Virus record (IMG/VR): IMGVR_UViG_3300046167_000780
Reading direction: 5' to 3' (one strand)
DNA from: an uncultured virus (IMG/VR IMGVR_UViG_3300046167_000780)
Lineage: Duplodnaviria; Heunggongvirae; Uroviricota; Caudoviricetes; Demerecviridae
Length of the DNA stretch: 29,120 bases
The stretch's first letter is position 1. Every line of letters begins with the position of its first letter. This document shows positions 25,070 through 28,907 of this stretch, piece after piece. The position numbers were made by a program, and so were the translations under genes. The notes beneath the pieces were generated by a model. It worked only from the letters and a program-made list of their open reading frames with translations, was not told where the DNA came from and ran no database searches.

Positions 25070-25145
25070 CGTCTTCTCCTTTTACTATCCACCAGAGTGC
25101 CATGATTAACAATGCACTCGCGATAAATACTGTATCAAAAAGCAT
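25062..25145 (-). CDS. 27-aa hydrophobic peptide
   Basis: MLFDTVFIASALLIMALWWIVKGEDDV*; AAGGAG RBS; overlaps both neighbours. Confidence 0.6.
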   Translation of the reverse strand: MLFDTVFIASALLIMALWWIVKGEDDV

Positions 25146-25329
25146 GGTCGCTCCTTTCTATGTGAGTATTGTTCTCTTGAAGAAGTCCCTTCTCCCAGTT
25201 AAATACTACTTCCTGTGCATAGTGAATACTATGCTTTCGTACATCTACTGTACCAAATAAGTCTCCGTTTTTATACAAGTGCACATACAATCCGCCGTCA
25301 TCTTGCATAATCTCTGCATCTCTCATCAT
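25135..25329 (-). CDS. Hypothetical protein
   Basis: ATG overlaps the upstream TGA; AAGGAG RBS. Confidence 0.72.
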   Translation of the reverse strand: MMRDAEIMQDDGGLYVHLYKNGDLFGTVDVRKHSIHYAQEVVFNWEKGLLQENNTHIERSDHAF

Positions 25330-25641
25330 GCCCACCACTCCTTCATAACTGCTACGGTGAGCATAAACCAGCTGACCGTGTTTAACATTATCAATGCACG
25401 GTCACGCCATATCACTGATACCCAAATCCATAATACGATGCCTATCCATCCTAGATATAAATCGTACATTCTATACTCTACACCCTGCTGCTCGCATCAT
25501 CAACGATGCCATAACAAAGAGGCTCGCAACCCATTTTAGATACCAATGAAAGTCTTCGGGCCACCAAGTTCTATCTGGCTTCGATATTCCCATAGCACGG
25601 ATCATAGGATTTCCAACTCCGCCATTTCCTTCTTTTTCCAA
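25326..25641 (-). CDS. DUF6552-like three-TM membrane protein with an apparent 1-nt insertion at about 25483-25485
   Basis: WYLKWVASLFVMASLMMRAAG continues in another frame as VEYRMYDLYLGWIGIVLWIWVSVIWRDRALIMLN...KEWWA*, whose stop overlaps the next start. Confidence 0.72.
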
Positions 25642-25724
25642 CTTCACTCTCCAATAATACACTTTTTTCTGTTTTGTTCACACTGTACAATACGCCAAGC
25701 CATATACCTACTCAAAAATGGTAT

Positions 25725-25753
25725 TTTACTTATGCCAAAAAGTGTGATAAAAT
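25725..25753 (+). promoter_or_regulatory. Putative extended -10 promoter for the structured element
   Basis: TTTACT, 17 nt, TAAAAT with TG at -15/-14; upstream A-tract. Confidence 0.55.
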
Positions 25754-25759
25754 ATATCA

Positions 25760-26065
25760 ATAATTGATAGACAATCAAGTCAATCATACTTCTCACCAAC
25801 CAACAGCGTAGGAAGTATCGTTGTAGTAATTACTGCGTTTAGAGTTGAAGGCGTTAGCCTTTCCACTCGGTACCCAGTATATTACAAATAGCTACTTTCA
25901 AGCTGTAATAATCCCACTTCTAATTGACTACTAATCATGGTGTCAATTACGACAAACCAAAATGACCCGGATAATCAAATAATTCTAAGACGGGTCAAAA
26001 CATTCAAACTGCTTTACTACAATTACGTCTTCTTTTATGCAATTCGGCCAAACCGAAATTTTTTT
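25760..26065 (+). ncRNA. Candidate ~300-nt multi-hairpin structured RNA (alternatively a DNA cis element or origin)
   Basis: Six or more successive stems plus a 9-bp long-range closing helix; G-U compatibility favours the + strand; flanked by a promoter and a hairpin + T7. Confidence 0.55.
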
Positions 26066-26238: not shown

Positions 26239-26464
26239 GTTGTGACCCCGCCACCGCTTTTTGCCAAGCAATGGTGAACTGCTCTTCTGCCCTAGCATTT
26301 TTAAAATTAATACGATTGTGATAGGGATCGAGATTACACTCAATATCTTCTAGCTCACAAATCGCAGCAGCTCTCCCAAACGACGGGGTCGAAGTAAATT
26401 GAGTACTCGGCCCATAATACTGCTTATCTTCCATCTCTTCTTCATAGTATCCACCGCACATCAT
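26231..26464 (-). CDS. Hypothetical protein
   Basis: ATGA overlap with the upstream gene; GGAGG RBS. Confidence 0.7.
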   Translation of the reverse strand: MMCGGYYEEEMEDKQYYGPSTQFTSTPSFGRAAAICELEDIECNLDPYHNRINFKNARAEEQFTIAWQKAVAGSQRD

Positions 26465-26814
26465 AGACCTCCTGGGTACTCGCTGTTCTCGAAACTTGCT
26501 GTTAACCCCGCCACTGCTTTTTCCAAGTTTCGTAACGCTGTCTTGGGACTTTTCTCCAAGCCAGCCAGAGACGCAACTTCAATTCCAAGATCCTCACAGA
26601 TATTGTTAACGATTTCCACTTTTGTGACAGGACTTTCACCAGTCTTTGATACATACACTTCTCTCCTGTATACGCCTTCTCTGCTGAGTTTACCAATTAT
26701 TGATTTTGTACTACGCCCTAGCTCTTCTGCTAGTTTATCTACTGTTTCTCGTGTTGGGTCTAAAATATACGCTGAAATCATTGCTTCAGTTTGCTGTTCA
26801 GTATAGTTCGACAT
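26461..26814 (-). CDS. A2/D3-like HTH DNA-binding protein, paralog 1
   Basis: MSNYTEQQT...PTRETVDKLAEELGRSTKSIIGKLSREGVY; GAGGA RBS. Confidence 0.8.
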   Translation of the reverse strand: MSNYTEQQTEAMISAYILDPTRETVDKLAEELGRSTKSIIGKLSREGVYRREVYVSKTGESPVTKVEIVNNICEDLGIEVASLAGLEKSPKTALRNLEKAVAGLTASFENSEYPGGL

Positions 26815-26986
26815 TCTTGTGTTTCCTCTTACGGTTGTATTTAGTTTTATCTTGGTGTACGGAGGGACGATTGAAATTGTACTTCGCCACGGGGTTGGCA
26901 GCGAGTCTCTCACACTGCCCGCTACAGTACCATACATCTAGTACTGCAGTAAACTCTTTCCCGCACTTTCTACACTTCCGTTTCAT
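26798..26986 (-). CDS. CxxC...CxxxC zinc finger fused to a basic NPVAK...YNRKRKHK tail
   Basis: MKRKCRKCGKEF...YCSGQC then NPVAKYNFNRPSVHQDKTKYNRKRKHK. Confidence 0.7.
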   Translation of the reverse strand: MKRKCRKCGKEFTAVLDVWYCSGQCERLAANPVAKYNFNRPSVHQDKTKYNRKRKHKNVELY

Positions 26987-27275
26987 CTTCCTCGCTCCAA
27001 GGGGTGAATACTATATCTCCTGAGTCCACATTGATACCAATACCAGATGAGTACTCTAAATAACCTACTTCTACATTATCAATACTGCCTAAAGCATGAG
27101 CATAGCGACGTAAATAGATATTATACTCTGCTTCTAGTGCAGCAGCTTTCTCTTCTATTTTGTCTACAAGTGCAAACGCTCTGTTTAAATTATCATACAC
27201 TTCATCAAGCTCTGCCTTCCTTTCGTCAAGCTGAGTTTGAAGTGACTTATCTTCTGGAAATTTCAAAACTTTCAT
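26970..27275 (-). CDS. Coiled-coil hypothetical protein
   Basis: GGGAG RBS after a promoter; heptad-rich sequence. Confidence 0.78.
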   Translation of the reverse strand: MKVLKFPEDKSLQTQLDERKAELDEVYDNLNRAFALVDKIEEKAAALEAEYNIYLRRYAHALGSIDNVEVGYLEYSSGIGINVDSGDIVFTPWSEEDETEV

Positions 27276-27298
27276 ACATTTCTCCCAATTAAGTTATA

Positions 27299-27327
27299 AT
27301 TATACTGGTTCTGAAGAAAAATGTCAA
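27299..27327 (-). promoter_or_regulatory. Sigma70-type promoter
   Basis: TTGACA, 17 nt, TATAAT. Confidence 0.85.
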
Positions 27328-27352
27328 GGTATTTTTTAGGTGAGGTAGGCAT

Positions 27353-27375
27353 AAAAAAGCCCGTATGAAACGGGC
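27353..27375 (-). terminator. Intrinsic terminator
   Basis: GCCCGT-TTCAT-ACGGGC followed by TTTTTT. Confidence 0.88.
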
Positions 27376-27600
27376 AACGGACTTGCTATGTCGAATAAGT
27401 GTGGAAGCCCCAACCATGCTCTACCCACTGTCCACCAAGTGATCTGTTTCCGAGCCAATCACCAAAACGCACGCCTACATCATATCGCTACTAGGAAGCG
27501 CCTACGCTAATAACACCGGATAGTAGGCTCGGCGACGAGGGTAGTCAGCAACGGCTGGAGCAAATCGGCTCATGTTGCTACCGCTATACCTCGATTTGAA
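27353..27600 (-). ncRNA. Candidate ~245-nt stand-alone structured ncRNA, family unrecognised
   Basis: Own promoter and terminator, no convincing ORF, a long G-U-rich helix (27561-27528 with 27439-27407) enclosing three hairpins. Confidence 0.72.
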
Positions 27601-27605
27601 TAGAT

Positions 27606-27635
27606 ATTATACTCGCTGAGAGCATCAAAAGTCAA
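27606..27635 (-). promoter_or_regulatory. Sigma70-type promoter driving the candidate ncRNA
   Basis: TTGACT, 18 nt, TATAAT, upstream A-tract. Confidence 0.8.
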
Positions 27636-27820
27636 GAATTATTTTTCGCAACTTCTGAAATAGTTTCCCAGCGTTTGTGTCCAGTAGCATAGCTATTGTA
27701 CTCAATAACCAACGCATCCGCATTCATGTGCAGTACTGGTCTAGGTTCTACTTGTGCTCTGCTAAAGTGCAGAGAGATACGATTAGATATCGTCTTCGGG
27801 TCGTCTCGTAGGGCATACAT
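27632..27820 (-). CDS. Hypothetical protein
   Basis: GGAGGAG upstream; stop codon lies inside the next -35 box. Confidence 0.62.
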   Translation of the reverse strand: MYALRDDPKTISNRISLHFSRAQVEPRPVLHMNADALVIEYNSYATGHKRWETISEVAKNNS

Positions 27821-27992
27821 AAATGTCTTTCTCCTCCCAGGTTATGTCAAATCCTTTACCGTGTACAGGCATTCTCGCAAATACACGTCCACCTTGTGTA
27901 GCTTCCATCACTACATCGCATTTAGCCCACTCAGGGTTTTCCCACAAAAATACATCAAGGTGATGTCTTAGGCTGTCTACTGATATTCTCAC
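27783..27992 (-). CDS. Hypothetical protein
   Basis: GTGA overlap with the upstream gene. Confidence 0.65.
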   Translation of the reverse strand: MRISVDSLRHHLDVFLWENPEWAKCDVVMEATQGGRVFARMPVHGKGFDITWEEKDIYVCPTRRPEDDI

Positions 27993-28171
27993 CAGATTAA
28001 CCCCTCGTCTTGCATATCAAATAGTATACGTTGCACTTGAAGCTCATCAAATGCCCACTGGTACTCTAGCTCTTCACGAATGCCACCAACAAACACCGTG
28101 TTTTGGCCTGTCGCGAGAGTAGAGGTGTGACGGTCAACGACCGCCATCATTTCGTATAGTGATAACAACAT
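27989..28171 (-). CDS. Hypothetical protein, possible small winged helix
   Basis: TAATG coupling; C-terminal VQRILFDMQDEGLI resembles a wHTH end. Confidence 0.65.
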   Translation of the reverse strand: MLLSLYEMMAVVDRHTSTLATGQNTVFVGGIREELEYQWAFDELQVQRILFDMQDEGLIW

Positions 28172-28494
28172 TAACCTACCAACGCTTCGATCATGAACTG
28201 AAGGTCTACTTTAGTCATTTTGTTGAGCGAAGGTAGCTCACGACCGATTGCATTTTGTACCTTTGCAACCAGCTCTGCCTTCATGATGACAGGCTCGCCA
28301 CGCTTAGTTACACGCTCTGTCTTCTGGTATACACCAAGTGCAGAAAGCTTTGCAATGATAGAGCGAGGTGTCTTGTTGAGTCGCTCAGCCAGGGCGTCTA
28401 CAGTTTCGCGTGTAGGCTCGACGGCGTACTCGTCAGTTAAAATAGTGATGTCTGCGTCTGAGTAGTTAGCAGATGATTTTGCAGTTACGTCCAT
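28171..28494 (-). CDS. A2/D3-like HTH DNA-binding protein, paralog 2
   Basis: NYSDAD...PTRETVDALAERLNKTPRSIIAKLSALGVY; GGGAG RBS; start at 28494. Confidence 0.8.
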   Translation of the reverse strand: MDVTAKSSANYSDADITILTDEYAVEPTRETVDALAERLNKTPRSIIAKLSALGVYQKTERVTKRGEPVIMKAELVAKVQNAIGRELPSLNKMTKVDLQFMIEALVG

Positions 28495-28540
28495 AATTTT
28501 TCTCCCGAAAATTTGTTTAGTGTTCCAATTCAATATAGAT

Positions 28541-28569
28541 ATTATACTACCGAGGGGCAATAAAGTCAA
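28541..28569 (-). promoter_or_regulatory. Sigma70-type promoter
   Basis: TTGACT, 17 nt, TATAAT. Confidence 0.85.
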
Positions 28570-28580
28570 GAAGTTTTTCA

Positions 28581-28907
28581 TCATTCTGCCCAAAAAATTT
28601 CTTCTTCGTCACCAGCGTCTGCCGCCATTTCCATTACAGCTTCGCACTCTGCATCGCTGTGGCATACAACGAACTCCTCTGAGCGTAGATCAAAAGCAAT
28701 TTGGTACACGGCTTTAGGGTCTGGAGATACTTCGAACCAGAACTCGTCACCGTAGTATGCGTCAAACAGCTCTTCCAGCGTGAGATCTGCATCTTCTGCT
28801 TCACAGTTTTCGCGTGTGTCAGCAATAAAGTTGTGCCACTCAAGAGCATTGTACATCTTGCACTGCTGGTCTGCGATGTCAAAGGTAACGGCGATAATCT
28901 GGTTCAT
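28581..28907 (-). CDS. Very acidic hypothetical protein
   Basis: GAGGAG RBS; start MNQIIAV at 28907; D/E-rich. Confidence 0.78.
   Translation of the reverse strand: MNQIIAVTFDIADQQCKMYNALEWHNFIADTRENCEAEDADLTLEELFDAYYGDEFWFEVSPDPKAVYQIAFDLRSEEFVVCHSDAECEAVMEMAADAGDEEEIFWAE

Follow-up and report, generated by a model that had tools for sequence, protein, structure and literature searches.

The minus strand of a 29,120-nucleotide (nt) stretch of DNA from an uncultured virus (IMG/VR record IMGVR_UViG_3300046167_000780; the whole stretch analysed is called the window below) carries, at 27353-27598, the gene of a structured noncoding RNA (ncRNA) of about 245 nt. The gene is real, and its RNA belongs to a previously undescribed family, all known members of which come from one marine clade of T5-like phages that is uncultured. 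The conserved fold of this RNA consists of a 5' domain (P1), an H-type pseudoknot and three hairpins (P3, P4 and P5). With modest confidence, we favor an early and trans-acting role in which the RNA would bind a protein as a decoy or scaffold. The original prediction, made from the letters of the window and a list of their open reading frames (ORFs), had proposed a stand-alone structured ncRNA gene of this size with an early-type promoter and a terminator of its own, and covariation in 45 homologues backs that proposal. The secondary structure that it drew for the RNA proved to be mostly wrong.

The signals that bracket the gene are those originally predicted. The promoter (27635-27606) has a -35 hexamer TTGACT at 27635-27630, an 18-nt spacer and a -10 hexamer TATAAT at 27611-27606, which together match the consensus at 11 of 12 positions, and an A/T-rich tract lies upstream of it. 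Transcription is predicted to start 7-9 nt past the -10 hexamer (27596-27601) and to end within the T-run of a textbook intrinsic terminator (27375-27353), whose G+C-rich stem GCCCGT/ACGGGC (27375-27359) is followed by T6 (27358-27353). Homologues show compensatory changes in this stem, and their terminators end in a U6-U7 tail. With its ends taken from the promoter and the T-run, the predicted transcript measures about 246 nt (27353-27598). The next gene has a separate promoter, also as predicted, which matches the consensus at 12 of 12 positions (27327-27299). On the upstream side, the stop codon TGA (27634-27632) of an ORF of 62 amino acids (aa) falls within the -35 hexamer of the RNA promoter, and no terminator stands between this gene and the RNA element; the RNA could therefore also be produced as the 3' end of the upstream operon. 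A peptide frame kept among homologues had been named beforehand as a sign against an RNA gene. No conserved ORF was found on either strand in any of the 45 homologues, whose longest ORFs differ in frame, start, length and sequence. Even close relatives differ by 1-nt indels, and length changes of this size occur in the P5 loop as well as at other sites.

Homologues were collected from marine viral and metagenome contigs of the uncultured T5-like clade. An exact 23-mer led to two IMG/VR contigs about 91% identical to the window in a three-sequence alignment; they carry indels of a single nucleotide and, in the terminator, a compensatory change. The flanking proteins led to further, more diverged loci. 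Common to those loci were the promoter block and the first transcribed bases, and a scan with this pattern returned 9 viral and 63 metagenome loci. None of these 72 related loci lacks the promoter block, a conservation that is partly ascertainment because the loci were found with that block. The 73 promoter copies, that of the window included, are followed by 56 distinct downstream sequences, namely 45 complete short-form RNAs of 188-262 nt (start to T-run), three short forms truncated by contig ends, five long-form sequences and three protein-coding ones. A scan of viral contigs for the P5 loop and the 3' block, both described below, returned only six contigs, all of them recovered by the other searches too. 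At L026, L037, L041, L068 and L073 an ordinary protein-coding gene is transcribed from a promoter block that is identical down to the first bases of the transcript, AAATC. Because the same block drives a protein gene elsewhere, it is a shared early-promoter cassette of the clade that stands outside the RNA family.

The architecture of the RNA was inferred by inspecting the variants and then checked on the window, and all coordinates of the fold refer to the minus strand. The P1 domain (27593-27536; model R2 and alignment A11) is closed by P1, CGAGG/CCTCG (27593-27589 with 27540-27536), for which the evidence is comparative, and continues across a UA/C internal loop into UAG/CUA (27586-27584 with 27544-27542). 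Two optional elements follow, P1b, CGGTAGC/GTTGCTG (27583-27577 with 27552-27546), and the P1c hairpin, GAGC/GCTC (27571-27568 with 27561-27558), which never varies. A single U separates P1 from the H-type pseudoknot (27534-27500), which is formed by S1, CGCCG/CGGTG (27534-27530 with 27518-27514), and S2, GCCTAC/GTAGGC (27528-27523 with 27505-27500). The P3 hairpin (27495-27474) pairs CCTAGT with AT-G-TAGG, leaving one bulged base, and its loop holds a CGAUA-like motif; the second GTAGGC copy pointed out in the original prediction is the 3' strand of this hairpin. A conserved junction, CGUGC(G/A)(U/G)UU.. (27473-27463), in which CGTG is invariant, leads from the pseudoknot or P3 to P4. The P4 hairpin (27462-27439), GTGAT/ATCAC (27462-27458 with 27443-27439), is recovered by RNAalifold on an unfitted alignment, and its 14-nt loop has a conserved core UURGCNCG followed by an A-rich 3' side. 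In the junction between P4 and P5 stands an apparently unpaired GGAC (27433-27430), seen by eye in every homologue compared; the lists of invariant columns from MAFFT do not hold all four GGAC columns, three rows being shifted there by one. P5 (27428-27401) is built of a lower stem GTGG/CCAC (27428-27425 with 27404-27401), an internal loop, an upper stem AGC/GCT (27420-27418 with 27408-27406) and a near-invariant apical loop of 9 nt, AUGGUUGGG (27417-27409); the lower stem and the first pair of the upper stem have covariation behind them, and the loop was defined from the homologue alignment. The same alignment defines a conserved and apparently unpaired 3' block, ACTTATTCGACATAGCAAGTCC (27400-27379), which adjoins the terminator. 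The unpaired parts that are invariant or nearly so are the CGUG junction, the core of the P4 loop, GGAC and the P5 loop. A second pseudoknot, between the CGUGC junction and GCNCG of the P4 loop, was considered as a possibility; its two strands hardly vary among the homologues, and changes at the N in the middle are uncompensated.

Covariation tests carry this fold. Plain MAFFT alignment followed by RNAalifold recovered only P4 and the terminator, both with compensatory changes, and missed the other helices because a sequence-only alignment misaligns variable helices. A covariance model of the core was built from the window alone (27542-27395), with nested helices only and S1 excluded. It gave 58 matches in 66 sources, with at most one per locus; two truncated short-form loci were matched in part, and long-form and protein-coding loci gave none. 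In the test alignment of 38 distinct rows, to which S1 was added as a pseudoknot, standard pairs fill 96.7% of 953 cells versus 78.3% in shuffles, 21 of 29 pairs are altered on both sides, doubly changed cells number 183 versus 55.4 +/- 8.4, and the covariation score is 0.410 versus 0.152. For each of these four measures, none of 500 shuffles was as high. Sliding the partners by 1-3 columns reduced the pairing to 39-46% and the score to 0.025-0.066. The changes are spread over the helices: both sides are altered in 6/6 pairs of S2, in 6/6 of P3 (94.4% paired), in 3/5 of P4 (100% paired), in 3/4 of the lower and 1/3 of the upper stem of P5, where the first upper pair is AU in 13, CG in 13 and GC in 10 sequences, and in 2/5 of S1, where one more pair alternates between GU (21), AU (10) and GC (7). 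The original prediction had listed three hairpins in this region, of which GTGATT/GATCAC (P4) and GCCTAC/GTAGGC (S2) both covary and were retained, and CGCT/AGCG clashes with the covarying P3 and was dropped.

The pseudoknot was examined on its own account. S1, although absent from the model, pairs in 96.8% of cells on the core alignment. When the 22 distinct pseudoknot sequences were aligned with plain MAFFT, S1 was paired in 97.3% of cells, versus 23-48% when slid, and it showed four doubly changed cells versus 0.7 expected, a number that none of 500 shuffles equaled. A fixed-rule search for crossing S1 and S2 helices succeeded in 45 of 45 RNAs versus 516 of 9000 mononucleotide shuffles, and at least ten different S2 helices and seven versions of S1 occur among the RNAs. 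The S1 pair 10-35 is G-U in 21 of the 38 sequences and would be a C-A mismatch on the opposite strand; because such G-U pairs fit only there, the structure is a property of the RNA (or single strand) of the minus strand. A second model, R2, which covers the 5' domain (27598-27533) and has the capped minimal forms of P1 outside its reach, gave 44 matches, 18 of them distinct. On these, 95.3% of cells pair and 7 of 19 pairs are altered on both sides, with 0/500 shuffles as high. The search for homologues and covariation that had been recommended with the original prediction thus yielded 45 distinct full-length homologues whose core helices covary.

A different picture results from folding the window sequence by itself. 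The minimum free energy (MFE) structure from RNAfold, at -80.5 kcal/mol, is the 5' stem plus long irregular helix of the original prediction. Dinucleotide shuffles average -77.8 +/- 5.2 kcal/mol (z -0.52), 49 of 200 being at least as stable, and the antisense strand gives z -1.14. The rod is the fold that any sequence of such composition yields. When the 30 pairs of the long helix (27561-27528 with 27439-27407) were mapped onto the unfitted full-length alignment of 40 distinct homologues, 67.7% of cells were paired versus 67.0% in shuffles (37/500 as high) and 7 pairs were altered on both sides versus 6.9 expected (315/500 as high). This helix exists in the sequence and in the MFE structure, yet it is not conserved, and many of its pairs are broken in 40-80% of sequences. 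Its strands are in fact the 3' strands of P1 and P1b and S1, along with the 5' side and loop of P5. The predicted 5' stem CAAATCG/CGATTTG fared no better: it is incompatible with both P1, which covaries, and P1c, its pairing is disrupted in L052, L074 and L075, and forms without P1c lack it. A further complementarity that had been offered as a route to alternative folds, CCGAGCC/GGCTCGG, is limited to the lineage of the window. Only the part between CCAGCC of the P1 internal loop and GGUUGG of the P5 loop (pairs 57-61 with 209-214) keeps its pairing potential, through one-sided C/U and G/A changes, although the mosaic variants L051, L085 and L040 no longer have it; the two loops may be in tertiary contact. 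The conserved fold is that of P1, pseudoknot, P3, P4 and P5 and not the rod, and the lesson for annotation is that the MFE structure of a region like this one may be an artefact even when it looks like an obvious rod.

The family was not matched to any known one. Rfam 15 at gathering score, a check proposed with the original prediction, identified no family in the window and none in five related loci. In a scan by E-value of 451 nt (27250-27700), the best row was Trp_leader with 22.9 bits versus a cut-off of 41, and it covered the terminator only. The original remark that the RNA was not recognized as a tRNA or tmRNA is upheld by ARAGORN, which found no such gene in the window and none in eight related loci; a D-arm-like string in the P5 of the window suggested a resemblance to tRNA that was rejected, since the string is not kept in the family and ARAGORN finds nothing. 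Neither blastn against 50,697 GenBank phage records nor tblastn with the downstream 101-aa protein gave a match. Models R1 and R3 matched none of five cultured Demerecviridae (T5, pVp-1, vB_AdhS_TS3, phi 3 and KKP_3711), in a search that had no positive control and whose empty outcome therefore shows little. The conserved 3' pattern, with 22 specified bases, was not found in GTDB genomes. We know of no stand-alone structured RNA described for T5-like phages, and full-text listings and the openings of abstracts held no description of such an RNA in them. About 8,500 candidate structured motifs of 29-151 nt from IMG/VR are catalogued in PMC10690425. The P5-loop string and two contig numbers do not occur in six of its supplementary files, the search having left aside three files that include the alignments, and sub-motifs of the RNA may overlap with that catalogue.

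The workings of 6S RNA, pRNA, ToxI, put, the Hfq-type small regulatory RNAs (sRNAs) and GOLLD/ROOL, and their coverage by Rfam, form the background for a comparison with known systems. 6S RNA, a structured ncRNA of about 200 nt that stands alone and is abundant, holds a protein and so acts in trans, as is proposed for the phage RNA; it binds the sigma-70 holoenzyme and serves as a template for product RNA. However, 6S RNA is a rod with paired ends and a central bubble, whereas the phage RNA is made of local hairpins and a pseudoknot, and its rod-like pairing is unconserved. Short matches to 6S RNA mentioned in the original prediction are attributable to chance, as no 6S row appears at E <= 10 in 27250-27700. 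Closest to the favored mechanism are ToxI and pseudo-ToxI, pseudoknotted RNAs of which the phage version is an anti-defence decoy that binds a host protein. ToxI consists of tandem repeats of about 36 nt (34-36), whereas the phage RNA is one molecule of several domains and about 245 nt and has no Rfam match, and Tandem Repeats Finder at a minimum score of 30 found no arrays in 27200-27800. A unit of ToxI is pseudoknotted and binds an endoribonuclease toxin; in the phage RNA the comparative evidence points to one pseudoknot. Hfq-dependent phage and prophage sRNAs and anti-sRNAs share with it a promoter of their own, an intrinsic terminator with a U-tail (here a 6-pair stem and T6) and a conserved unpaired stretch beside the terminator. 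In contrast to them, the phage RNA is much larger and more structured, has a covarying pseudoknot and lacks a target in the window, and its candidate seed is dispensable in 3 of 45 variants. The pRNA of phi29 is a phage-encoded structured RNA of similar size with a strong promoter and acts within a protein machine. It differs in that the RNA studied here belongs to a T5-like phage, has no Rfam match and is encoded among early genes, not beside the packaging ATPase; in a relative of 48 kb (G002) about 4.5 kb separate the RNA gene, in the early block, from the terminase genes, which are on the opposite strand. Moreover, the sole loop complementarity seen in the phage RNA is the unconserved CCGAGCC/GGCTCGG. 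The put element of HK022 acts in cis on the transcribing polymerase, so that terminators are read through; a position just after an early promoter is compatible with this, but the strong terminator and fresh promoter that follow argue against any need for it here. GOLLD and ROOL and the IMG/VR candidates of PMC10690425 are also orphan RNA families of phages or metagenomes with covariation support. Compared with GOLLD/ROOL, the phage RNA is much smaller, and it has no Rfam match.

Expression was viewed through metagenomic assemblies. Twenty listed runs, from 17 studies, hold part of the window, and 15 of the runs are on record as RNA. The view of expression is of four runs and of assembled contigs only, a kind of data that may include DNA and whose depth is no basis for ranking genes. 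Contigs that cover or bridge the RNA gene span 27381-27569 (X13), 27429-27857 (X12), 27529-27747 (X1) and 27529-27679 (X5). The word depth inside the gene is 140.5 and 51.6 in X1 and 24.5 in X5 versus 7-11 in the flanks, values that do not rank genes and to which DNA may contribute. The contigs break at variant junctions (27529 and 27469) and not at transcript ends, and the parts left uncovered carry no meaning.

In the reading that we favor, host RNA polymerase would transcribe the RNA at a high level immediately after infection, and the RNA would accumulate early and act in trans. The rigid stack of P1 and the pseudoknot, together with the P4 and P5 hairpins, would present the conserved loops and junctions to a partner as recognition surfaces. 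Most likely a protein, of the host or of the phage, would be bound and held, as on a decoy or a scaffold, and the terminator hairpin with its U-tail would stabilize the RNA. The stems would be free to covary because they serve as the scaffold. Several points weigh against this reading. The decoy or scaffold mechanism is a suggestion drawn from the anatomy of the RNA, and transcription of the predicted transcript is judged from contigs of RNA-labelled libraries, which can contain DNA. Every homologue was found by way of the promoter or of a conserved loop, so that the conservation of those elements is partly circular. The alignments of S2, P3, P4 and P5 are model-fitted to the structure, and their percentage paired is inflated as a result; relatedness among the sequences makes the shuffle controls overstate significance; and the evidence for S1 consists of few events, the four doubly changed cells. 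Thermodynamics give no support, the MFE being no better than that of shuffles (z -0.52). In the window, the comparative nested fold reaches -47.5 kcal/mol versus -80.5 kcal/mol for the MFE structure, so the conserved fold would need kinetic or co-transcriptional folding, the pseudoknot, tertiary contacts or a partner.

The main rival, which we rate as rather unlikely, is a base-pairing regulatory sRNA of the Hfq- or ProQ-dependent type, in which the 3' block (27400-27379) would be the seed for a host or phage mRNA and the structured 5' part would provide stability or a second function. The 3' block has its sequence kept while nearby stems vary and stands directly 5' of an intrinsic terminator with a U6-U7 tail. 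The promoter lies within the end of the upstream ORF, and since no terminator follows that gene, the RNA would resemble the sRNAs that derive from 3' untranslated regions and have an internal promoter. However, 3 of 45 variants (L032, L087 and L066) lack the block and RNAs of the L023 type have a diverged version of it, although they retain the remainder of the RNA; no complement of it occurs in the 29-kb window at up to three mismatches, and about 200 nt of covarying structure with a pseudoknot are far beyond what such sRNAs need. Complements of the 3' block and P5 loop were found nowhere else in the window at a meaningful level. An element acting in cis appears improbable, whether as a riboswitch or attenuator of its own terminator, a put-like modifier of the polymerase or a structured 3' end that stabilizes or insulates the upstream operon. 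Its position between two early units speaks for it, as does the fact that read-through from the upstream promoters (28964 and 28569) must pass the element and end at its terminator; a pseudoknotted aptamer followed by a terminator is, moreover, the usual layout of a riboswitch. Yet the element has a near-consensus promoter of its own, and the downstream gene has a promoter too, which in the window matches the consensus at 12 of 12 positions; a downstream promoter is present in 40 of 40 short-form sequences not cut by a contig end. No known aptamer is matched, even at E <= 10; L032, L087 and L066 have an entirely different terminator and preceding block, and no alternative pairing is conserved there; and in sister phages an unrelated RNA of about 540 nt replaces the element.

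That there is no feature at the RNA level at all, and that the region is instead a DNA element (an origin or an array of protein-binding sites), a small protein gene or a spacer with chance structure, has been largely refuted already and is very improbable. It would agree with an MFE no better than that of shuffles on either strand and with the presence of short ORFs, for example 27388-27510 (plus strand, 40 aa) and 27336-27458 (minus strand, 40 aa). It is contradicted by the 21 of 29 core pairs altered on both sides with pairing kept, by G-U pairs that suit the minus strand only and by the promoter and terminator that bracket the element; the ORFs are conserved neither in frame nor in sequence, and 1-nt indels break all frames. 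Few structured RNAs of phages with genes of their own are understood. Given its comparative support, compact pseudoknot core, modular evolution and strong early promoter, the RNA is a tractable candidate in the search for new interactions, with a protein or with another RNA, that are used as infection begins.

The modular evolution is evident from the variants, as lineages have gained, lost or exchanged P1b/P1c, P3 and the 3' block. P1 ends in a pentaloop cap in the minimal forms L060, L043, L062 and L063, is extended by P1b alone in L045 and by P1b and P1c in the window, and carries other inserts in RNAs of the L025, L074 and L023 types. P3 is absent from 17 of the 38 distinct core sequences. 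Other sequences stand in place of the 3' block and terminator in L032, L087 and L066, and the block is diverged in the L023-type group. Mosaics were also observed: on contigs of 47-53 kb, L051, L086 and L092 combine a 5' half identical to that of the window with an L062-type 3' half and a P5 loop shorter by 1 nt, and L085 is a near-identical mosaic. Metatranscriptome contigs also break at the mosaic junctions. By their sequences, the mosaics point to recombination within the RNA gene among co-occurring phages.

Sister phages carry a different sequence in the same slot, where the homologue of the 62-aa gene and then the same promoter block precede an unrelated noncoding stretch of 488-541 nt (start to T-run) with a terminator of its own. 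These long forms lie at L030:368-906, L029:366-906, L059:419-906 and L094:367-906 on the minus strand and at L069:81-619 on the plus strand. They have no Rfam match and contain no tRNA or tmRNA. Homology to the short-form family was rejected, as model R3 scored at best 5.8 bits (E 0.76) with filters off. RNAalifold predicts 141 pairs for the long form, nine of them altered on both sides, from five close sequences only, and its 3' module is variable. The long form of about 540 nt probably represents another new structured RNA. That a large and unrelated RNA can replace the short form in its slot suggests that phage early regions hold a class of RNA cargo missed by protein-centred annotation. 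A bolder idea, which we regard as doubtful, is that the slot after the 62-aa gene is an exchangeable site for RNA cassettes and that the RNAs of about 245 and 540 nt are RNA-only effectors of counter-defence or host takeover, decoys of host proteins that sense nucleic acids or bind RNA. If it were true, the swapping of modules (P1b/P1c, P3, the 3' block and the mosaic halves) would record an arms race fought with RNA.

The phage of the window is a distant relative of phage T5, as judged from its protein content and its identities to cultured Demerecviridae. It encodes a split NAD-dependent ligase, a D5-like regulator, a primase, a DnaB-like helicase, a DNA polymerase, an SbcCD-like nuclease and a flap-type exonuclease; the DNA polymerase is at most 45.1% identical to those of cultured Demerecviridae (from Aeromonas, Vibrio and enterobacteria), and the ligase subunit at most about 47%. 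The RNA gene sits among small early genes, each with a strong sigma-70-type promoter. Upstream of it is the 62-aa gene (27632-27820, minus strand), to which no function is assigned and a homologue of which stands 5' of the RNA slot in every short-form and long-form locus with a readable gene. Its protein matched no Pfam or PHROG family. The confident AlphaFold model of the protein (predicted local distance difference test score 91.4) has one helix and three strands and gave no match to the PDB in Foldseek at E <= 0.001, the best E being 0.31. The protein was considered as an RNA-binding partner and rejected, as without a family or fold match there is no basis for an RNA-binding label. Downstream lies the next unit (26970-27327, minus strand), with the consensus promoter TTGACA-17-TATAAT (27327-27299) and the 101-aa gene (27275-26970). 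In the 48-kb relative G002 the RNA gene is present once, in a leftward early block downstream of small genes; about 4.5 kb upstream of it the strand switches, and genes for terminase, portal, capsid and tail proteins begin. Among the small genes upstream of the RNA gene in this early block are those of a protein resembling polynucleotide kinase (phrog_415, E 1.6e-23) and of one resembling an exonuclease, at L101:3801-4289 and L101:3088-3804 (both minus strand). They may represent a function in the repair of RNA or DNA ends near the RNA gene, one that may or may not be linked to the RNA.

Some minor observations concern the surroundings in the window. Two early proteins that flank the RNA region, of 140 aa (28171-28593, minus strand) and 158 aa (26461-26937, minus strand), look like paralogues by eye in their translations. 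Both match Pfam IF2_N below its cut-off, and their weak PHROG matches differ, being to a D5-like regulator for the 140-aa protein and to a DNA-binding protein family for the 158-aa protein. An ORF-poor region at about 25700-26050 (minus strand), 80-86% identical to the relatives L003-L007, contains hairpins that by eye are altered on both sides between relatives (GACCCG/CGGGTC versus GACCG/CGGTC, and AATTGAC/GTCAATT versus AATTCAC/GTGAATT) as well as an unvarying hairpin GAAGGC-TAAC-GCCTTC. This region may be another structured RNA or a leader upstream of a gene for a small membrane protein. Near 25470 (minus strand), between the ORFs 25471-25662 and 25135-25338, the window has one base more than four relatives (GCAGCAGGGTG versus GCTGC-TGGTG), and this extra base, either a frameshift or an assembly error, cuts what is a single gene for a small hydrophobic protein in the relatives into two ORFs.

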